A stretch of 10,432 nt of DNA from a virus. Of the stretch, positions 1 through 10,432 are shown one piece after another. Position 1 is the first letter of the stretch, and every line of letters starts with the position of its first letter. Position numbers and translations under genes: made by a program. The notes beneath the pieces were generated by a model. The model was not told the origin of the DNA. It ran no database searches and saw only the letters and a program-made list of their open reading frames with translations. Location: the UHGV virus genome UHGV-0214677. One strand, 5' to 3'.

Positions 1-201
1 ATAATGTCGCTACCGCAGGAAACGAAAGAGGAAAAGGAATTTCGCCATTGTATATGGCTTGCAGAGAAAGAAGAACGCGAGCGAATTTACCAGACATCAA
101 TCCGACCATTCCGCAAAGCCACATATACCCACTTCCCTGAATATATCGACCCGCGCCTGCGTAATTACCGCTCACGCTATGGCGCTATCAGTAATGACTG
201 A
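1..201 (+). CDS. Hypothetical prophage protein, probably 3' part of a gene that begins upstream of the window
   Basis: Frame 1 is open from nt 1 with an ATG at 4 and stop TGA at 199-201. The translation ([16 protein letters not shown]...) is protein-like, and the next gene follows 10 nt later with its own SD. No family recognised. Confidence 0.4.
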
Positions 202-211
202 GGAATTTACC

Positions 212-376
212 ATGAGAGGACTTGCATACAATCCCGGCATTCTTCCGGCAGAAATGATTATTCGCCAACGCGTAAAGCCAATGCCATCGAGAGAGGAATT
301 GCTTAAGAGAAATAGTTTCGGTTCTGTTAATGACAACAAATATCTGAATGCGATGTGGCGGAGTGGGAAAAAATGA
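212..376 (+). CDS. Small hypothetical prophage protein (54 aa)
   Basis: ATG at 212 preceded by GAGGA (200-204). Stop TGA at 374-376 overlaps the ATG of the next gene (ATGA). The longer ORF-track call 59..376 would overlap the previous gene out of frame and has no SD. Confidence 0.4.
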
Positions 377-972
377 AACAAATGTCACTAATTGAGATGG
401 ATGGTTTTCTGAAAGGTAAATGCATCCCAAGTGATTTAAAGGTTAACGAAACAAACGCTGAGTATCTGGTGCGTAAATTTGCTGAAGCGGAGGCCAAGAT
501 TTCGGCTCTGTCCGAAGACCACCAGAAAGCGATTGAGTCAATTAAGCAGGCTGATGCGGCTGTTAAGTTGGCACACGAGAAGTTTTCGGCGCTGGCGGCG
601 GAGAATGCGGGGCTGAAGGGTGCGTTTGATAAGCCTCAAGCATATCTATCCTGGCACGCTATTCCACCAAGCTGGGAAGACCCGCTCCCATGCGGTGAAT
701 ATCTTGATGTTCATGACGAGGCAGGACACAAAAACTCCGATGGAACTGATTGCTGGCCGGTATATGCCAAGCCAGAAATCGAGACCACAGCCACCTACGC
801 ATTCCTGGCTGAAGTACGGGCGCAGGGGGTAGAGATGTACGCAGATAACCTCGACAACGGAGCAGACGACGCAGAACGAGGTGGTTTTGATTATGCCGTT
901 AAGTTTCTACGCAGTGAAGCGTCTGGTGTACGTTTGTTCGCCGACCAGCTTCGCAAAGGAGGCAACCAGTGA
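373..972 (+). CDS. Hypothetical prophage protein
   Basis: ATG at 373 preceded by GGAG (359-362), in frame with the ORF-track call 355..972. Stop at 970-972 overlaps the GTG start of the next gene. No family recognised. Confidence 0.55.
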
Positions 973-1829
973 GCAAGATTGATTATCAGGCACTGCGTGC
1001 TAAGGCAGAAAAAGCAACGTGTGGCGAGTGGTCTCTCGAGTATGGAGAGGGCCGATTTGATGGTGATGATGCACTAATTCATCGCGAGGCTGCTGGATAT
1101 ATTCCCATTTGCAGAATTGAAGGAGCGCATCCTGAAAGCGGTTTCGATGAAGATTTCCAAATAGAACAGCAGGCCAATGCTGAATTCATCGCCGCAGCCA
1201 ATCCGGCTACCGTCTTGGCGCTGCTGGATGAACTGGAAAGAAACCAGCAATACATCAAACGCCGCGACCAGGAGAACGAGGATATTGCGCTTACGGTTGG
1301 GAGGCTGCGCGTTGAGCTGGAAGGCAAAGACAGCAAAATAGCCAATCTTACCGCCGAACGCGATGCTCTTCGTGAAGGTGAGATGGGCGACGCTAGGCAT
1401 AGCAACACACGGGCCGCAGCTGATATCTACTTCCAACTGGTCGAGGAGTGCGAAATTCCTGCTGGCGGTTCTCTGGTCGAGTACGTTGACGATATGCGCG
1501 AGAAGCTGGAAGCCGCAGAGAAACGTCTGGCAGAACTACAATCTAAATCCATGCGACCTGTGGCGTGGATGAGAAGCGACGATATTACTACATTTGGACC
1601 AATATTCACCAAGAACGAAAACTATGCTGTTGAGCAGTGGGGAGATAATGCGGTAGCGCTTTATGCATCCCCAGTTAATTTCAAGTTGGCATGCTTCACT
1701 GACGAGAGAAATCTTAAGTACATCAATGAACGAGGAAGGGAGACATCTCTCATCTGGAGCGAAAGAAATTCAGAAAATGGTGATGTTCAACTTTTCCGCG
1801 CCGCAGGCATTCGCATCAAAGGAGAGTGA
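969..1829 (+). CDS. Probable Ead/Ea22-like prophage protein
   Basis: 286-aa ORF with GTG start at 969 preceded by AGGAGG (957-962). N-terminal 'DYQALRAKAEKATCGEW' and a central coiled-coil-like acidic region resemble the Ead/Ea22-like family of lambdoid prophages (recalled, not searched). Confidence 0.65.
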   Translation: MSKIDYQALRAKAEKATCGEWSLEYGEGRFDGDDALIHREAAGYIPICRIEGAHPESGFDEDFQIEQQANAEFIAAANPATVLALLDELERNQQYIKRRDQENEDIALTVGRLRVELEGKDSKIANLTAERDALREGEMGDARHSNTRAAADIYFQLVEECEIPAGGSLVEYVDDMREKLEAAEKRLAELQSKSMRPVAWMRSDDITTFGPIFTKNENYAVEQWGDNAVALYASPVNFKLACFTDERNLKYINERGRETSLIWSERNSENGDVQLFRAAGIRIKGE

Positions 1830-1830
1830 T

Positions 1831-2118
1831 ATGGCAACTTTGCAGGAATTAATCGACCTGACGCCGGAACAGGAAAAAGCGTGGAATCGCCTTGTGAAGG
1901 CTGTAAAGGATTTCAGGGCATCCGGAGGAAAGTTTTATAGCGTCCTGGACACGCTGAGCGCATACAACGGTGAGCACGTTGCCAGCATTGATAACGATAA
2001 GGGCTACCACACTGCAAGCGTCTATATGCCTAGCATTGATGCGCCAGGGCTAACCAGTTGGGCTGATGATTGGCACGGCATCACGCTGAAAGATGGCGTT
2101 GAAGTGGATGAGGACTAA
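1831..2118 (+). CDS. Hypothetical prophage protein (96 aa)
   Basis: ATG at 1831 two nt after the previous stop, preceded by GGAGAG (1821-1826), in frame with ORF-track 1663..2118. The upstream part of that ORF overlaps the previous gene and is unlikely to be translated. Confidence 0.5.
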   Translation: MATLQELIDLTPEQEKAWNRLVKAVKDFRASGGKFYSVLDTLSAYNGEHVASIDNDKGYHTASVYMPSIDAPGLTSWADDWHGITLKDGVEVDED

Positions 2119-2121
2119 CCC

Positions 2122-2814
2122 ATGACCACTATTACCAAAGAGCGACTACTGACAATCAAGCAGTGGCGCGAAACATACGGACCTGGTAGCAACGTTGTAC
2201 TGCCAGCAGAAGAAGCGGAAGAACTGGCACGAATTGCACTGGCATCGCTGGAAGCAGAACCGGTGGCGTGGATGCGTGATGACGCAGATGGTCGTGAGTA
2301 TAACGCTCGCAATGAATTTTCTGATGGAGGGAAAGGAATTCCGCTATATCGTGTGCCGCCAGCGCCGGAAGTGCCGGAAGAAATATATTGGCAGGATGCG
2401 CCAGTTGAAGGCAGCATCAAAGCGGCTGCATACGCTACAGACTGGAACGCCTGCCGCGCCGCCATGCTTCATGGTGCCAAACCTGTAAGCCAGACTTACA
2501 AGTTAAACGAGCTGTCGGGCAACTCTCCGGTAACTCCGGATGGTTGGATAAGCTGTAGTGAGCAGATGCCTGTAATCGGCGAGCTAAATTGGAGAACTAG
2601 TTTTCCTTTACTGGTTACGTGTGAGATCGGCGTTATACCTGCTTATTACGGCTTTGTGAGCGTTAATGGTGATAGGCATTATGGCTTTATGGAGAGTCTT
2701 AAATACGGAGACGATAACGGCAACCATCCTCAAACTAATGAATATGGTCTGATTAGCAATGTCACACACTGGATGCCTCTACCAGAACCGCCTCAGGAGG
2801 TTAACCGTGGCTAA
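2122..2814 (+). CDS. DUF551-family prophage protein
   Basis: 230-aa ORF with ATG at 2122. The C-terminal '...THWMPLPEPP' matches the signature I recall for DUF551 proteins of enterobacterial prophages. Stop overlaps the next gene's start. Confidence 0.65.
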   Translation: MTTITKERLLTIKQWRETYGPGSNVVLPAEEAEELARIALASLEAEPVAWMRDDADGREYNARNEFSDGGKGIPLYRVPPAPEVPEEIYWQDAPVEGSIKAAAYATDWNACRAAMLHGAKPVSQTYKLNELSGNSPVTPDGWISCSEQMPVIGELNWRTSFPLLVTCEIGVIPAYYGFVSVNGDRHYGFMESLKYGDDNGNHPQTNEYGLISNVTHWMPLPEPPQEVNRG

Positions 2815-3088
2815 TCTGCAACTTGCCGTTAAAGGTGAATACTTCGATGCCATGATTCGCGGGGAGAAAACGGAAGAGTATCGCTTGTGTAATGACTACT
2901 GGAATAAGCGAATTATGTTCCGGGAGTATGACCGCCTGATTATCACGAAGGGATATCCGAAGCGCGACGACTTCAGTCGCAGAATTGATGTCCCGTATGA
3001 CGGATATGAAATCAAGACAATCACACATCCCCACTTCGGCGATAAACCGGTAAAGGTATACGCGATAAAGGTGAATATCAATTGCTAA
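2807..3088 (+). CDS. Hypothetical prophage protein, possibly ASCH/PUA-like fold
   Basis: GTG at 2807 preceded by a perfect AGGAGG (2795-2800) with 6-nt spacing, in frame with ORF-track 2759..3088. Overlaps the previous stop by 8 nt. The fold assignment is a weak guess. Confidence 0.5.
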   Translation: MANLQLAVKGEYFDAMIRGEKTEEYRLCNDYWNKRIMFREYDRLIITKGYPKRDDFSRRIDVPYDGYEIKTITHPHFGDKPVKVYAIKVNINC

Positions 3089-3089
3089 A

Positions 3090-3199
3090 TTAGTAGCATA
3101 GCATAAAGATGCTTGCATTAATGAAGTGTGTATAATAACGCCTCATCAATAGTAAACTACTGAAATAGCAAAAAATGCATATTAAAGAGGATTCGAAAA
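3090..3199 (+). promoter_or_regulatory. AT-rich intergenic region with candidate sigma70 -10 element (TATAAT at 3121-3126)
   Basis: Consensus TATAAT hexamer in an AT-rich spacer upstream of the 3200 ORF. The nearest -35-like TTGCAT (3104-3109) is only 11 nt away, so the promoter architecture is unresolved. Confidence 0.3.
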
Positions 3200-3391
3200 T
3201 TGAAAATGTTCATGCAAATAGACAGACGCATAGATATTAATGGCAATTCATACTTAGTTAGATGCGAAGAGAGGCCTAACGGTGAGTGGCGTGTATATGA
3301 TATTGACCGTAAGATCAATATCAGCACCATGAACAAAGACACTGCCTTTGATGAATGGAAAGCTGAAGCTAAAAAACAACATAATTCGTAG
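3200..3391 (+). CDS. Small hypothetical protein (63 aa)
   Basis: ORF with TTG at 3200 (ATG alternatives at 3206 and 3212) preceded by AAAGAGGA (3184-3191). Lies in the AT-rich region. No family recognised. Confidence 0.4.
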   Translation: MKMFMQIDRRIDINGNSYLVRCEERPNGEWRVYDIDRKINISTMNKDTAFDEWKAEAKKQHNS

Positions 3392-3471
3392 AATTACAAA
3401 AACCCTAACCAATTGATGGATTTCTTTTATCTGAACTCGCTACGGCGAGTTTTGTTTTATGGAGATGATAA

Positions 3472-3639
3472 ATGCACTTCCGAGTCACAGGTGAATGGAA
3501 TGGAGAGCCATTCAACAGGGTTATCGAAGCAGAGGACATCAACGACTGCTATAACCACTGGATGATATGGGCGCAGATAGCACATGCAGACGTAACCAAT
3601 ATTCGAATTGAAGAACTGAAAGAACACCAAACCGCCTGA
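3472..3639 (+). CDS. Small hypothetical protein (55 aa), below the ORF-track length cutoff
   Basis: ATG at 3472 preceded by GGAG (3461-3464). Translation MHFRVTGEWNGEPFNRVIEAEDINDCYNHWMIWAQIAHADVTNIRIEELKEHQTA. Stop TGA at 3637-3639 sits in the loop of a canonical terminator hairpin. Confidence 0.5.
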   Translation: MHFRVTGEWNGEPFNRVIEAEDINDCYNHWMIWAQIAHADVTNIRIEELKEHQTA

Positions 3640-3655
3640 TGGCGGTTTTTTATTG
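3630..3655 (+). terminator. Rho-independent terminator
   Basis: Stem ACCGCC (3631-3636) / GGCGGT (3641-3646) with loop TGAT, followed by TTTTTTATT. Confidence 0.7.
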
Positions 3656-3696
3656 CCTGATTTGCAGGTTCGATTCCCTATTCGGAGATAGCACTC

Positions 3697-3897
3697 ATGC
3701 AACACGAACTACAGCCTGATTCACTGGTTGATTTGAAATTCATCATGGCCGATACTGGCTTTGGTAAAACCTTCATCTACGACCGTATTAAGTCCGGCGA
3801 CTTGCCAAAAGCCAAAGTTATCCACGGGCGAGCAAGATGGTTATATCGTGACCATTGTGAATTCAAAAATAAGCTCTTAAGCCGCGCCAATGGGTAA
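3697..3897 (+). CDS. AlpA/Xis-family DNA-binding protein (probable excisionase or integrase regulator)
   Basis: 66-aa ORF with ATG at 3697 preceded by GGAG (3684-3687). The pattern 'LKFIMADTGFGKTFIYDRIKSGDLPKAKVIHGRARWLYRDHCEF' matches the AlpA-family helix-turn-helix signature. Sits immediately upstream of the integrase on the same strand. Confidence 0.8.
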   Translation: MQHELQPDSLVDLKFIMADTGFGKTFIYDRIKSGDLPKAKVIHGRARWLYRDHCEFKNKLLSRANG

Positions 3898-4109
3898 AAT
3901 AGCGGGTAAAATATTTCTCACATCTAAAAAACACCATTCCAATCAATCCCCTGCCGCCTCAAGTAGATGTCTGCAGGGGACACCATTTACACCTCTCCTG
4001 AAATCTACCATATCCCATAAAAAGCCTTTATAATCAGTATATACCCTTACTTATGTTACTCAAATAGTCGCCGTGATTCTCCTCAGGGGTACGTAAATCA
4101 AGTCACATT

Positions 4110-4159
4110 TGGGGGCCTATTTAGGGGCACATATTGGTCAATCTATTGCGAGGCCCCCA
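4110..4159 (+). promoter_or_regulatory. Perfect 9-bp inverted repeat spanning the integrase ribosome-binding site
   Basis: TGGGGGCCT (4110-4118) and AGGCCCCCA (4151-4159) are exact reverse complements 32 nt apart. The right arm contains the GAGG Shine-Dalgarno 7 nt before the int ATG. Confidence 0.3.
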
Positions 4160-4160
4160 G

Positions 4161-5351
4161 ATGCCACTGACAGCTCGACAAGTTGAAACAGCCAAACCCA
4201 AAGATAAAATTTATAAAATTGCCGATGGTGGTGGGCTCTACCTGCAGGTCAATCCTAACGGCTCAAAGTACTGGCGAATGAAGTACCACTATGCAGGGAA
4301 GGAAAAGAAACTATCATTTGGCACCTATCCAACTATTACATTGGCTGAAGCTCGCAAACGTCGGGATGAAGCCAAGAAAATACATGCCGATGGTAAAGAC
4401 CCCGGTGAAGTCAAGAAAGCTGAAAATCTTGAGAAAAACCTTTCTGAAGGAAGAACTTTTGCCACAATCGCCACCGAGTGGTACAACGCAAAAGTTTCAG
4501 GCTGGTCGGCCAGCTACGCTGATTATGTCGACAGAGCATTCAAAAATAATGTGTTTCCCTACATTGGAAACAGACCCATCAGTGATATCGAACCTCTTGA
4601 ACTTCTCGCAGTTCTTCAGCGTATTGAAAGCCGCGGAGCCTGCGAGCTAGCTAATAAAGTTCGCCAACGATGTGGTGAAGTGTTTCGGTATGCCATTGTT
4701 ACAGGTAGGGCTCGATACAATCCAGCCTCTGATCTGGTTATAGCAATGAAAAGCCATAAACGAACACATTACCCATTCCTGCTTCCTCCTGAACTACCAG
4801 AGTTTTTGTACAAACTCGAAAACTACACCGGCAGTATTGTAACCCGTGAAGCTACAAAATTGTTGATGCTCACAGGGCTGAGGACCGTAGAATTACGTAT
4901 GGGGGAATGGTGTGAGATCGATTTTTCCCAAAAAATATGGGAAGTGCCTCCGACCCGGATGAAAATGAGGAAGGAACATATTGTTCCCCTCTCAAATCAG
5001 GCAATTCGGTCTCTCCAAATCCTTAAAGAACTGACGGGAAGATACAGATACATCTTTGCCGGAAGAAATGATGTTAACAGGCCTATCAGCGATGCAAGCG
5101 TCAATATGGTTTTGAAGAAGATTGGCTATGACAAAAAAGCTACCGGGCATGGTTTTCGTCATACAATGAGTACTATTCTACATGAGAAAGGATTCAATAG
5201 TGCATGGATTGAAATGCAACTTGCACATACGGACAAAAACAGCATTCGTGGTACATACAACCATGCTCGTTACCTTGAAGGAAGACGAGAAATGATGCAA
5301 TGGTACGCTGACTACCTTGATGCTATTCGAAAAGATTCCCCAGCTATATAA
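4161..5351 (+). CDS. int: P4-family (DUF4102-type) tyrosine integrase
   Basis: Typical N-terminus 'MPLTARQVETAKPK...GGGLYLQVNPNGSKYWRMKYHYAGKEKKLSFGTYP...LAEARKRRDEAKK'. C-terminal catalytic signature present: R in 'GLRTVELR', 'HGFRHT', and Y in 'IRGTYNHARY'. ATG at 4161 with SD is preferred over the in-frame TTG at 4134 used by the ORF track. Confidence 0.9.
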   Translation: MPLTARQVETAKPKDKIYKIADGGGLYLQVNPNGSKYWRMKYHYAGKEKKLSFGTYPTITLAEARKRRDEAKKIHADGKDPGEVKKAENLEKNLSEGRTFATIATEWYNAKVSGWSASYADYVDRAFKNNVFPYIGNRPISDIEPLELLAVLQRIESRGACELANKVRQRCGEVFRYAIVTGRARYNPASDLVIAMKSHKRTHYPFLLPPELPEFLYKLENYTGSIVTREATKLLMLTGLRTVELRMGEWCEIDFSQKIWEVPPTRMKMRKEHIVPLSNQAIRSLQILKELTGRYRYIFAGRNDVNRPISDASVNMVLKKIGYDKKATGHGFRHTMSTILHEKGFNSAWIEMQLAHTDKNSIRGTYNHARYLEGRREMMQWYADYLDAIRKDSPAI

Positions 5352-5489
5352 TCACTTGATTTTAAAGGCTGACTTAACGAAATACCTTGATAGTCATTTA
5401 TCAGTAATCTAATAGTTAAGTCAGTCATAATCCCCTAAGTATCACTCCTCAATCAGTTTCAGCACATTGTTGACCTGTCTCCAGTATTC

Positions 5490-5913
5490 GATACAACCAT
5501 CAGTCAGCCTGCTGGCACGACGTTGCGACAGACCCGTTGCCTCACACATGACTTCCACGGCTTCCCACTTCTGTTCTGTCGTCAGAATTTCGGTCCAGAG
5601 CTACCTGAAGTACCTCCTTATCCAGCATGGTTTTGGCGAGCAGCGTCTTGAGGGGTCGTTCTCCTCTTCAGGTGTCTTAAGCCGCTTTACCTCAGGGACT
5701 TCTATTCCACCAAACTTCGGCGCCCGGTGTAGAAAGTAGCGTCTGAAATAGCATTCTTGCGGCAGAGTTCCCGGGCAGAAACGCCGGCTACGGCCTCGCG
5801 GAGGATACTGATAATCTGTTCGTCGGAAAACACTTCTTCATGGGGATACCCTAACGTTGCTGATGAAGACATTACTTACATCGTGGTATATTAATAAATG
5901 TGGGAGCAGGTCA
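5490..5913 (-). mobile_element. Degraded IS3-family insertion sequence remnant (IS407-group-like orfA with frameshifts, truncated at its distal end)
   Basis: The - strand reads MSSSATLGYPHEEVFSDEQIISILREAVAGVSARELCRKNAISDATFYT... from ATG at 5870-5872, then breaks frame. Other frames continue with '..EVPEVKRLKT..', '..LLAKTMLDKEVLQVAL..' and '..VEVMCEATGLSQRRASRL', typical of IS3-family OrfA and the OrfB N-terminus. A terminal-repeat-like TGACCTGCTCCCA (reverse complement of 5901-5913) lies 41 nt outside the ATG. The inner boundary near 5490 is approximate. Confidence 0.6.
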
Positions 5914-6058
5914 ACTCCACAATGCAGTCCACTGAGGGAAGAGATCATTAGGTGCAAAGGATCTACATTAGTGGCTGAAAACAACTAGAATTTAGAATTA
6001 AAAAGTTTTATCCTATATTAGTAAGTATTTTTGTTAACACTTTTGTAAGGATACTTTT
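5914..6058 (+). promoter_or_regulatory. Very AT-rich leader and probable promoter region of the SIR2-like/DUF262 operon
   Basis: About 145 bp of AT-rich non-coding DNA between the IS remnant end and the first cassette gene, with several TATA-like hexamers (for example TATATT near 6015) and an AAGGA SD at 6044-6048. No single -35/-10 pair can be assigned confidently. Confidence 0.25.
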
Positions 6059-7108
6059 TTGAGCAGCGAAAAAAAAAAGAAAGTTGGGTTAATGCTTGGG
6101 AATGGATTCACTATTGACCTCCTTAGCAAAATGGACAAACTTGATATAATTGACCCATCCGATCTATTTAAATATGGCGATATGGTTAAGTGGCCCGCCA
6201 CTGGGGAACCCGGTTTTCTTTCTGCTCGATATTGCCCAAATCTATGGCGATTGGGTGCAAGACCCGGGCTAAATAGAACCGCATCATATCAAATAATAGA
6301 AGAATTAATTACAGTAATAAATTTATATGCAACTCTACCTCCAGAAACAATAAAGAAGAAAAATCAGGCAAGTCATACTCCATTGTCAAACATTTACATT
6401 TATGCTTATCAAGAATTAGTTTCATATTTAAGGGAGCTTTTCATTGATTATAACGAAAAAGTTTCCTCTGAAGATCTACGTAAGTTAGAAAGTGGCTGGC
6501 GAGACTATTTGATGAAACTGGACAAAAACGAAAACATAGAACGAGTTGATATTATAACTTATAACTATGACATTTATCTTGAGCGCCTTCTTGATTTACT
6601 TAATATCAGATTTGACATCCCAAACATATCTGACGGGAATGCAAAGTTTAAAATATACAAACCACATGGCTCTATTAGCTTCTTGTATGAAGGATATATG
6701 TCAAAAGATAACTACAATATCCAAAAAGAGTTATCTTTAAATAATGGCGACATATCAAAATTCGAATGCCGGCATGAAAACTTAAGCCTTTACATGCCAT
6801 TAATTCCAATAATACCGCCAGCAGGAGAAGCTCATCGTTATGCCCAAAACTGGGCTAATTCAATTAAAGAGTCTATTGAAGCGACGATGGAGTCGTACAA
6901 CCCAAACGATGATTTCTTCATTTGTGGTATTTCATATTGGCATGTTGATCGTGCCGAAATTGATGCAATAATACGCAAAATAAACAGTGACGTTAATGTT
7001 AGAATGATTAATCCAGGAAATGTTGATGGTTTAAGTGCTATACTTGGAATGGTATTTAATAGTTATGTTCATCATTCATCATCTGAAGTTTTAAAGGAGC
7101 TTGCCTAA
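6059..7108 (+). CDS. SIR2-like (DHS-like NAD-binding, SIR2_2-type) protein; candidate NAD+-consuming effector
   Basis: 349-aa ORF. Three motifs occur in the order expected for SIR2-family defence proteins: a Gly-rich N-terminal loop 'VGLMLGNGFTIDL', 'DIITYNYDIYLERL' (compare the TTNYD motif; predicted Asn ~169) and 'KIYKPHGSISF' (compare the KLHGS motif; predicted His ~203). Start is TTG at 6059 (SD AAGGA at 6044-6048) or the in-frame ATG at 6092. Stop TAA at 7106-7108 overlaps the next start. Confidence 0.6.
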   Translation: MSSEKKKKVGLMLGNGFTIDLLSKMDKLDIIDPSDLFKYGDMVKWPATGEPGFLSARYCPNLWRLGARPGLNRTASYQIIEELITVINLYATLPPETIKKKNQASHTPLSNIYIYAYQELVSYLRELFIDYNEKVSSEDLRKLESGWRDYLMKLDKNENIERVDIITYNYDIYLERLLDLLNIRFDIPNISDGNAKFKIYKPHGSISFLYEGYMSKDNYNIQKELSLNNGDISKFECRHENLSLYMPLIPIIPPAGEAHRYAQNWANSIKESIEATMESYNPNDDFFICGISYWHVDRAEIDAIIRKINSDVNVRMINPGNVDGLSAILGMVFNSYVHHSSSEVLKELA

Positions 7109-8136
7109 TGGAAATTTTAAAGCGGGATTCAAACAGTATTAATATTGCTTCCTTTTGGGAGGGCTTTTCATTAGGCAAATTTAATTTTGATCCTCCTTAT
7201 CAAAGAGATAGTGTTTGGGATGAAGAAAAACAATCATTCTTTATAGATAGTATACTACGTAACTATCCAATTCCCCCTATATTTCTCCATCAAAAAATTG
7301 ATGATGACACCGGAAGAATCACGTTTGAAGTTGTTGACGGAAAACAGAGGCTCACTGCCATTGTTAATTTTATCAATGGCCAAATAACATCAGCAAGTGA
7401 GGAAGAAGATGATGAATTGACTGGTGTGTTTTTTTCCGATTTATCAACTTCTAAATATGCAGAAGTTAAAAAATTATTCTGGCGATATCAGATGCCTATA
7501 GAGTACATTGATACTGAAGACGAAAGAATAATTGATAGTATTTTCGACAGGCTTAACAGAAATGGTGAACGACTTAACGGACAAGAGTTAAGGAATGCCA
7601 AATATCATGATACTGATTTTTATAAAAAAATAGTAGAATATTCACAACGTGAATATTGGCAAAAATTGCTAGAGCACGTTGATAAGAAGAGAATGGAAGA
7701 CAAAGAGTTTGTATCTGAATTGATATTCACGATCCTTGAGGATGAAGTATTTGGTGCAACTCAAGACATAATTGATAGTCTTTACGAGAAGTATTGCACC
7801 AAGAATGGTGATGAAACAAATGAGGCATTTTCTATTTTTGAAAAAACAACTGACTATTTAGTTGATATGAATATTGATTTCAAAAGTCATAAAGCAAGCG
7901 GTGTTAGTCACTTATACGGAATCTTCAGTTATGCACTTTATTGCAGTAACAATAATGTTCCTGTAGAAGAAGCGTCAAATAGACTTTCCACCTTCCTGGA
8001 TAGCTTGTGGGAAAAAGATACACAACATAATGCGGAATTAAGAAGAGAATATAGAAAAACTATGAGTTCTAGCACAAAAAGCAAAACCCAACGCTCACGT
8101 AGAATTGAAGTGCTTTTAAATCTACTTCACGATTAA
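7108..8136 (+). CDS. DUF262 / ParB-like nucleotide-binding domain protein without a C-terminal HNH (DUF1524) domain
   Basis: 342-aa ORF with ATG at 7108 overlapping the upstream stop (TAATG), preceded by AAGGAG (7093-7098). N-terminal 'FDPPYQRDSVWDEEKQSFFIDSIL' and 'EVVDGKQRLTAI' match the two signature motifs of DUF262 (the GmrS / SspE N-terminal ParB-like domain). No His-Me/HNH-like motif is visible in the C-terminal ~140 aa. Confidence 0.75.
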   Translation: MEILKRDSNSINIASFWEGFSLGKFNFDPPYQRDSVWDEEKQSFFIDSILRNYPIPPIFLHQKIDDDTGRITFEVVDGKQRLTAIVNFINGQITSASEEEDDELTGVFFSDLSTSKYAEVKKLFWRYQMPIEYIDTEDERIIDSIFDRLNRNGERLNGQELRNAKYHDTDFYKKIVEYSQREYWQKLLEHVDKKRMEDKEFVSELIFTILEDEVFGATQDIIDSLYEKYCTKNGDETNEAFSIFEKTTDYLVDMNIDFKSHKASGVSHLYGIFSYALYCSNNNVPVEEASNRLSTFLDSLWEKDTQHNAELRREYRKTMSSSTKSKTQRSRRIEVLLNLLHD

Positions 8137-8148
8137 ACTATATAATAG

Positions 8149-8177
8149 TAGGAGTGAACTTCGCTCCTGCTTTTCTC
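8149..8177 (+). terminator. Possible weak intrinsic terminator downstream of the DUF262 gene
   Basis: AGGAG (8150-8154) ... CTCCT (8164-8168) can form a short stem, followed by GCTTTTCTC. The stem is short and the loop long, so this is tentative. Confidence 0.3.
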
Positions 8178-8788
8178 ACTCTATCTTTTATTATTTCTCT
8201 TTGAGATATGAAGTAATACTTTAAAAATATAAATCACATTCATCGCATATGATATTGTGATATCCCCACATGGTGCATGTTCGTAGTCTATCCCTCAGGC
8301 AAATAATAATAGAAAGTTAACCGAATCAGTTATACTCTCACCCAGATATTAGGATGGCTAAATCAACATGAGTGCAAGGATCGTCTTGGGGGAAACATTG
8401 GCACTGTGTGATGGCTCATCATTAAAAAATCAGTTTATATCAAAAGTAAATGATTACAGAAAAACTATATTTATAGATAAAGAAAAAAGCATTTAATTAC
8501 TTCTTAAATATGATAATCACACTCTGTGAAATGATACTTTGACTTACTTCCAATTATTAAACCACGAGATTCATGCATTACCATAATCATTTAAGAAAAC
8601 AAAAGTCCGGCCTTTGCTCTTATCAACCACTACAATTCATAAAGAAATCCTGTTGATGCAAAAAAAAGACATTGATCACAATATCGAGTTAATCATTTGA
8701 AAGTTTATTACTCACATTGAAAAATTTCTCAGTATCAGATATACCAACGTTGAGGGCTTCCCTCTTACATCTCAAAAGGATAACTATC

Positions 8789-8917
8789 ATGGGTCTTAAA
8801 CCAGGTCCAAAACCAATTGCTAAATCGACAGGAAAACCGGATCAACGCCGACGAGATAATAAAGATACTCCTGGCAACACTCCGGGACTAAAGCCAAGTA
8901 AGTCCACCGGGAAGTAA
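8789..8917 (+). CDS. Small Lys/Pro/Gly-rich hypothetical protein (42 aa)
   Basis: ATG at 8789 preceded by AAGGA (8775-8779), within ORF-track 8717..8917, whose TTG start has no SD. Translation MGLKPGPKPIAKSTGKPDQRRRDNKDTPGNTPGLKPSKSTGK is low-complexity. No family recognised. Confidence 0.3.
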   Translation: MGLKPGPKPIAKSTGKPDQRRRDNKDTPGNTPGLKPSKSTGK

Positions 8918-8922
8918 AAAAT

Positions 8923-8951
8923 CAGGGTATAAATAAGTTATTTATACCCTG
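8923..8951. terminator. Perfect palindromic hairpin between convergent genes, probably the terminator of the - strand gene remnant
   Basis: CAGGGTATAAATAA (8923-8936), G, TTATTTATACCCTG (8938-8951): 14-nt arms that are exact reverse complements. An A-run (8916-8921) on the + strand gives a U-tract after the hairpin for the - strand transcript. Confidence 0.55.
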
Positions 8952-8965
8952 ACTACATATCCAGT

Positions 8966-9861
8966 TTACTGAAGGTGTTTCTGCAGCCAGATGCACGTTC
9001 CTTCTGTATCATACGCCTGTGCCCCATACCCTGTAGCAAGCAAAGTCTCTGGTAAATACTCGTCATATTTATCCAGGTACTTGTCAGGAACAACTGCAGC
9101 AAGCTCAAACTCTGAAGGTAACCCCGACAATAACATTTTCTTAAGTGCACGCTGAACAGAGGCAACGCCTGAGCCCTCTACCTCTATCACACCTGCAAAT
9201 GAACTGGCTTTAAAGCCACAACGTATAAGCAGGGACGTAATTGTATTGACAATTTTATCCCCCATCCACGGGATCACGTAGCAGTTCTGACCACTGGCAA
9301 TAAAACAGTGATTTTGTAGATTGTAGCGTTGGAAGTTGTCACTTCCTTCCGCGAAGAGGCTTCTGGCTGCGGCATCAGCATAATCAACTCTCTTGTTGCC
9401 TACCGCGATACGGTAATCATTTTCCCTGTAGATAGCGAGCATCTCCTGGCGAACAACATCATGAACAGACATCCCGCTACCACTGAATAGTGGTGGCTGC
9501 CCGCCTTTAGTCGCCTCAACATAGATAGCTTTTTTTCAACCTCGATCTCTGTCACTTTCCAGCGCTGTCCGCCGAAGATGATGTGCTGCTCCGGCAAAAG
9601 TGGGGAGTCTACAGGCACTGTGCCAAGAGTTCGGTTTCCCGTTACAATGCGAAACTCCTCAGATGTATTGAATACGGCATAAAACGTGTAGTGATTAATC
9701 AGCTTCTCCCCCTCAGCCCCGACAACTATTTAACCGCTGGCTAGTTGAGTGAGCAGGCCACATGTCCCCATATGTTTAAGCAGACTTTTGAAGTCATTTA
9801 TATCCACATTCCGGAACGGACCTGTCTGGCAAAGTTGTGACCAGAGCTGATCGGCACGAAC
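8966..9861 (-). pseudogene. Disrupted gene of unknown function (C-terminal remnant with frameshift and in-frame stop, truncated by IS insertion)
   Basis: ORF-track fragments 8966..9472 and 9400..9618 are adjacent frames of one reading frame, broken at a 7-T homopolymer (9530-9536). Further upstream the reading continues in the same frame as the 9400..9618 fragment but is interrupted by an in-frame TAA near 9735, and the coding sequence runs directly into the IS end at 9862. I could not assign a family. Confidence 0.6.

Positions 9862-10432
<571 letters not shown>

Follow-up and report, generated by a model that had tools for sequence, protein, structure and literature searches.

We regard it as very probable that positions 8966-9861 (minus strand) of the viral genome UHGV-0214677 are what is left of a dead sngC gene, which encodes the helicase of the Shango defence system, and that an integrase-bearing island at argW, a tRNA-Arg gene of E. 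coli, once carried Shango as cargo. The stretch of DNA analysed as a whole (hereafter the window) is 10,432 nucleotides long. An earlier note on it had described a gene inactivated in three ways, namely by an insertion sequence (IS), a frameshift and an in-frame stop, and each of these is confirmed, no more than a few bases from where the note had placed it. The gene itself is an ordinary pseudogene: the defence gene was known before, as were the IS that cut it and the site as a hotspot of integration. The same three defects are already flagged in the public annotation of identical sequences; what is added here is the name Shango sngC, the exact nature of the lesions, evidence for a deletion in the IS event, and the distribution of these features among genomes.

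Identity of the remnant

Shango consists of a TerB protein (SngA), a BrxD-like ATPase (SngB) and an Lhr-like helicase (SngC) (Millman et al. 2022, 10.1101/2022.05.11.491447). The anti-phage system validated from E. coli KTE113 (system SG206) has proteins of 769, 438 and 732 aa (10.1101/2022.05.11.491447). The anti-phage activity of Shango from P. aeruginosa PA14 has been validated as well (Johnson et al. 2023, PMC10250203), and the Shango literature suggests that the TerB protein may survey the membrane.

Positions 8700-10432 of the window were read, and the minus strand was translated in three frames. Starting at 9861, the frame of interest is interrupted by a TAA at 9730-9732, resumes as far as 9530, shifts by -1 and ends at the gene's own TAA stop at 8966-8968. 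Aligned to the intact sngC of strain CFSAN061762, the remnant begins at nucleotide 1303 of the coding sequence, that is, at the first base of codon 435 in phase 0. The last 298 codons (435-732 of 732) are thus left, and codons 1-434, all motor motifs among them, are absent. The pieces are fragment A (9733-9861), which extends from the IS junction to the premature stop and translates into 43 aa (codons 435-477); fragment B (9530-9729), which keeps 200 of the 201 nt of codons 479-545; and fragment C (8969-9529), which holds codons 546-732 (187 aa) in the -1-shifted frame and contains a 168-aa ORF at 8966-9472.

The identity of the gene was settled through comparison of E. coli genomes and searches of profile libraries. 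When the three pieces were joined in order, with Glu in place of the stop and the missing base put back, the repaired 298-aa translation matched the PADLOC profile of SngC (PDLC03960) at positions 434-719/720 (E 1.3e-82, 277 bits), so the pieces do not represent a chance reading frame. The second-best PADLOC match was BrxHI (E 5e-17, 59 bits). The kept part is therefore matched by the profile from end to end and belongs to the same gene family as Shango SngC, of which it is an E. coli orthologue. The window differs from a Shango system in that it holds only the interrupted codons 435-732, without the motor domains, sngB and sngA. The lack of the motor domains marks this copy as a remnant and is no argument against its membership of the SngC family.

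The intact homologue whose identification the earlier note had recommended, together with its domains, is sngC of CFSAN061762, which has a contiguous 732-aa frame (PADLOC SngC, 8e-278). The operon of this strain is unbroken: SngA has 769 aa, carries TerB_N, TerB and TerB_C domains and matches its PADLOC profile at 2e-102, and SngB is a 438-aa ATPase (PADLOC 2e-187, 622 bits, vs 148 for BrxD). The gene order sngA-sngB-sngC and the sizes of 769, 438 and 732 aa in intact relatives within the same island are those of Shango. Over the first ~399 aa of each protein, the part of the KTE113 sequences available for comparison, the CFSAN061762 proteins are 97.5% (SngC), 99% (SngB) and 94% (SngA) identical to those of KTE113. 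The island that houses the CFSAN061762 operon has a related tyrosine integrase and adjoins the same tRNA-Arg/yfdC/mlaA backbone. The suggestion that the gene had once been cargo of the same region is borne out by this intact orthologue, which sits with sngA and sngB in the same argW/yfdC island. In addition to the lesions, the remnant differs from the intact gene by 12 non-synonymous and 8 synonymous changes and by a synonymous change of the stop codon (TAG to TAA).

A second, partly decayed relative is found in strain NCTC10444, which has no IS at the site and carries a 2,198-bp version of the gene with a frameshift at the same place. Upstream of it are the last ~114 codons of an ATPase gene (the sngB stump), which match SngB (E 6e-28). 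The 732-aa helicase reconstructed from NCTC10444 matches PADLOC SngC from end to end (E 1.3e-274, 911 bits), followed by BrxHI (1.2e-113, 379 bits). Its DEAD (residues 25-201) and Helicase_C (261-363) domains both fall wholly in the part deleted from the window. The 5' part of sngC, together with the adjoining ATPase gene, is held by ~450 complete E. coli genomes.

Some of these matches could be read as the trace of a BREX system, in which BrxHI lies beside a BrxD ATPase (types 2 and 6), rather than of Shango. The upstream stump appears in PGAP annotation as 'BREX system ATP-binding domain-containing protein' and falls into Pfam BrxC_BrxD (E 1e-17), and BrxHI ranks second in PADLOC for both the full-length helicase and the remnant. 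Such cross-matches reflect a likeness of the two systems, each of which has an Lhr-like SF2 helicase and a P-loop ATPase of the BrxC/BrxD family. The scores, however, lie much below those of the Shango profiles, with 379 vs 911 bits for the full-length helicase, 59 vs 277 bits for the remnant, and 148 bits for BrxD vs 622 for SngB. The intact orthologous locus also has a TerB-domain gene (sngA) upstream and, over the portion of the proteins compared, is near-identical to the validated KTE113 system. Neither pglX (methyltransferase), pglZ (phosphatase) nor brxC is annotated in the CFSAN061762 locus from the island integrase to ~5.8 kb beyond sngA. On profile scores and gene context, a BREX origin was rejected, and we give it hardly any credence.

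Solved structures bear on the deleted part of the protein. The motor domains of the intact orthologue match the Lhr and MrfA (YprA) repair helicases (PDB 5v9x, 7lhl, 6znp; E 1e-25 to 3e-29), but these matches stop at residue ~375, and no solved structure matched the kept C-terminal 298 residues in a sequence search with the intact orthologue. A match of the full-length helicase to the winged-helix family WH_Lhr was weak (17.9 bits, cut-off 27). AlphaFold2, run on the 187-aa C-terminal fragment as a single sequence without an alignment, returned an unusable model (pLDDT 35, pTM 0.24).

The same DNA occurs in E. coli chromosomes. Window positions 8900-9900 are 100% identical to six complete chromosomes, ATCC 8739 among them, and positions 3971-9861 are 100% identical to strains ARS-C301, STEC799 and CE-O153H30; over 3971-10432 the window differs from the ATCC 8739 record by four substitutions and one indel. 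PGAP labels the identical DNA of ATCC 8739 generically as 'DEAD/DEAH box helicase; frameshifted; internal stop; incomplete; missing N-terminus', and next to it calls an 'IS3-like element IS1203 family transposase'.

The three lesions and their distribution

The first lesion is the junction with the right end of an IS629/IS1203 element of the IS3 family (9862-10432, minus strand), which is co-oriented with sngC and cut by the edge of the window. Its terminal inverted repeat, TGAACCGCCCCGGG (TGAACCGCCCCGGGTTTCCTGG), has its first base at 9862, and the 3' end of the transposase gene orfB lies at 9904-10422. In strains without this IS the helicase sequence continues from 9861. The earlier description of a minus-strand gene that meets an IS629-like end at 9862 and has lost its 5' part is thus accurate, and the lost part amounts to codons 1-434.

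The far end of the element lies outside the window, so the deletion is deduced from other genomes in which the locus is identical. The ATCC 8739 copy measures 1310 bp, has both inverted repeats and is annotated by PGAP as 'IS1203 family transposase, programmed frameshift'. Its flanks, AAC and GCC, differ and show no target duplication; the right flank reads GCCTGAGTAAG. Compared with the arrangement in NCTC10444, the element replaces at least 2,165 bp, which consist of 1,302 bp from the 5' side of sngC, the stump of sngB and ~420 bp from the start of an unrelated, older pseudogene of the IS3 family. The unlike flanks and the missing target duplication argue that the element did not simply insert but deleted adjacent DNA or recombined with another IS copy. 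In its TGAACCGCCCCGG terminal repeat, its full length of 1310 bp in identical loci and the lack of a target duplication, the case resembles other IS629/IS1203-mediated deletions, and nothing about it is unusual. Truncations and adjacent deletions by IS629/IS1203 in E. coli are well known from O157:H7 genomes.

The DNA on the far side of the IS varies among genomes that have the identical junction with sngC. It consists of MarR and iol genes in ATCC 8739, of an IS110 remnant, a nucleotide-binding/SLATT pair and a Qat system in NT1F25, STEC799 and EC361, and of an IS1 with amino-acid decarboxylase/antiporter genes in M21816. The IS seems to serve as a point of recombination.

The second lesion is a premature stop. 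The plus-strand triplet TTA at 9730-9732 reads TAA on the minus strand, where IS-free relatives and the intact gene have GAA for Glu478 (E478*); the base changed is window position 9732. An in-frame TAA had been noted near 9735, and 9730-9732 is its exact place. In a collection of 5,426 complete E. coli genomes, the 3' end of sngC was found in 549, the identical IS junction in 18 and the TAA allele likewise in 18. Among 16 sampled loci, all 13 with the IS have TAA and all three without it have GAA.

The third lesion is a loss of one base. The break in the frame, at 9529/9530, borders on a T7 run (9530-9536) that is the sole long homopolymer within the remnant; the site as a whole (9529-9536) consists of a single C followed by the T7. 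Frame-intact alleles have CC at this place, so that AGCC-T7 or AACC-T7 on the plus strand corresponds to AGC-T7 in the window. On the coding strand the change is from AAAAAAAGG to AAAAAAAG, in which one G of a GG pair, nucleotide 1635 of the coding sequence and third base of codon 545, is lost. Since the T7 is also present in frame-intact alleles, the lesion is the loss of one C with the run length unchanged. The earlier view of a homopolymer frameshift at the T7 run therefore stands as to the place of the break, but the run kept its length and it was the adjacent CC doublet that lost a base.

The one-base deletion was found in eight complete genomes, namely six of the 18 that bear the IS and the IS-free NCTC10444 and R1. 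All four sampled loci that share the derived SNP 5499A with the window carry it (FDAARGOS_1257, ARS-C301, STEC799 and CE-O153H30), as do the IS-bearing ATCC 8739 and GXU-23-25-310. Among the sampled IS-bearing loci, its distribution would fit a single origin. Across the wider set, R1 shares six other variants with RM11911, from which the deletion is absent, but shares the deletion with NCTC10444. This conflict, and the occurrence of the deletion in both IS states, indicate that it is homoplastic, be it through recurrence, short-tract recombination or error. All eight copies with the deletion are already decayed. The deletion beside the A7 run of the coding strand may have arisen more than once, the motif being a local indel hotspot that becomes visible once selection is lost; this is a tentative idea, and on balance an unlikely one.

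Error deserves separate attention, since a deletion that was an artefact of sequencing or assembly would reduce the real lesions to two, namely truncation by the IS and the premature stop. A 7-nt homopolymer lies next to the site, several assemblies may come from long reads alone, and the deletion conflicts with other markers in its spread over IS-bearing and IS-free copies, including R1 with its six-site affinity to RM11911. Against this, the length of the homopolymer is constant and the missing base is a C of the CC doublet; the deletion occurs in eight independent assemblies from different laboratories; and it tracks phylogeny among the sampled IS-bearing loci, being present in all four with 5499A. 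Furthermore, none of the 549 genomes carrying the segment has it on the exact intact-type 80-mer background at an identity of at least 99%, a count in which other SNPs within the 80-mer could hide alleles. This last result argues against a systematic assembly artefact at the motif and fits purifying selection on intact copies. We consider an artefact quite improbable and treat the deletion as a genuine third lesion.

Order of decay and residual function

Three steps may account for the present state of the locus. In the first, an older IS3-family element would have removed sngA and most of sngB, a state kept in NCTC10444, R1 and RM11911. In the second, IS629/IS1203 would have landed at the boundary of codons 434 and 435 in the lineage of the window, where an adjacent deletion or IS-IS recombination would have taken codons 1-434 along with the sngB stump and the beginning of the older IS, and Glu478 would have become a stop in the same lineage. 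In the third, one G beside the A7 run would have been lost in a sub-lineage that includes the window. The remnant of the older IS3 element is common to both lineages and abuts the sngB stump in NCTC10444, from which we infer, as the most economical history, that sngA and most of sngB were lost first. Alternatively, the older IS could have come to lie first beyond an intact sngA, with separate deletions following in the two lineages, as the sequences could also be read.

The age of the decay can be gauged from substitutions. The remnant and the IS-free pseudogene of NCTC10444 differ in one base of 896, which is the stop itself. This points to a decay that is recent in substitution terms, though it is common to 18 genomes that come from a range of hosts and countries. 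The pseudogenisation had been thought long-standing; that may hold in so far as the partner genes were probably lost already, but it does not agree with the single difference from NCTC10444. The pN/pS ratio relative to the intact allele is ~0.4 and equal in the 5' and 3' halves, indicating only moderately relaxed constraint, and a ratio of this size in both halves says little about the age of decay. Other lineages have lesions of their own: RM11911 has a 1-nt deletion at the equivalent of window position 9713, and eight IS-free genomes, RM11911 and R1 included, have an extra base in the 5' part of sngC. These different lesions indicate independent erosion of the same dead gene, as neutral decay predicts.

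Neither sngA nor sngB is present in the window or in the identical locus of ATCC 8739. With these two genes and the motor domains all missing, the remnant is taken to be non-functional, and Shango activity or anti-phage protection would not be expected from it.

The gene's intrinsic terminator is retained. A hairpin at 8920-8954 (minus strand), with a perfect stem of 15+15 nt at 8922-8952, is followed by a T tract and comes directly after the sngC stop. The 168-aa ORF at 8966-9472 represents the SngC C-terminal domain; it begins with ATG and keeps this native terminator, and the transposase genes of the IS point into the remnant. The ORF might thus be expressed, alone or by read-through from the IS, and act as a decoy or modulator, a notion that the persistence of the remnant in 18 genomes of diverse hosts might seem to favour. 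However, no convincing ribosome-binding site or promoter was found, and promoter-like sites in 8100-9950 numbered 4 against a shuffled expectation of 4.6, that is, without excess. The ORF is itself a leftover of the frameshift. Of the 18 genomes, 12 have no frameshift and a different frame upstream of it. With copies that are 99.8-100% identical, persistence shows recency and not selection. We know of no stand-alone protein family like the 168-aa ORF. Judged from the sequence, a residual function is very unlikely, and decay without function is by far the better account. At the gathering threshold, Rfam gave nothing in 8966-9861. Short plus-strand ORFs within the remnant (53-54 aa) were treated as chance.

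The surrounding island and the meaning of the remnant

Convergent with sngC, and sharing its hairpin terminator, is a small plus-strand ORF at 8789-8917 that encodes a 42-aa Lys/Pro-rich peptide (MGLKPGPKPIAKSTGKPDQRRRDNKDTPGNTPGLKPSKSTGK) and has an AAGGA 8 nt upstream. The peptide is 100% conserved in CFSAN061762 despite at least 2 nucleotide changes; it is unannotated and has no family match. Homology with the island that carries intact Shango begins only at 8657, which places a module boundary ~310 bp downstream of sngC. To the left of 8657 lies a low-GC module (0.33-0.35 vs 0.45-0.50 for the remnant). The end of homology and the contrast in GC suggest that the remnant and its left neighbours share the island as separate modules of different origin. 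A 15-bp indel at 8548, TCCAATTATTAAATA, separates IS-bearing from IS-free islands.

The left neighbours at 6059-8136 (plus strand) are two genes with a one-base overlap. The product of the first is a 349-aa protein, called 'SIR2 family protein' in newer PGAP annotation, with weak Pfam matches to AbiH and SIR2_2, and that of the second a 342-aa DUF262/GmrSD_N protein that matches NsnA (2e-39) and PD-T4-2_A (1e-27) in PADLOC. Together they resemble an intact two-gene defence module. A single-A indel at 6069, close to where the SIR2-family gene starts, is polymorphic among near-identical islands. The A is absent in NT1F25, GXU-23-25-310, 744 and RM11911, where the PGAP protein is shorter, and the indel is homoplastic relative to the sngC frameshift. 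The only Rfam match in the window, an IS1222_FSE ribosomal frameshift element at 5498-5614 (minus strand, 98.5 bits), lies inside the remnant of a transposase pseudogene between the island integrase and the SIR2-family gene.

The first part of the window, positions 1-3970, is not island DNA; it is the right (TorI) end of a KplE1/CPS-53-like prophage, with TorI, Ea22-like, DUF551 and ASCH genes. No complete E. coli genome in the collection has 80% or more of this prophage segment. Positions 3971-3985 are the last 15 nt of a tRNA-Arg and represent the att core; no tRNA gene was found in the window. The position of the att core between prophage and defence island indicates that both lie in tandem at argW.

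Apart from bookkeeping, the finding is of little weight. A pseudogene for which RefSeq has only the generic label 'DEAD/DEAH box helicase' receives a specific name, Shango sngC. The finding also shows that strains of the ATCC 8739 type should score as Shango-negative. On a small scale, the locus neatly illustrates the stepwise erosion of defence systems by IS elements at the argW hotspot, while the neighbouring SIR2 and DUF262 genes stay intact.
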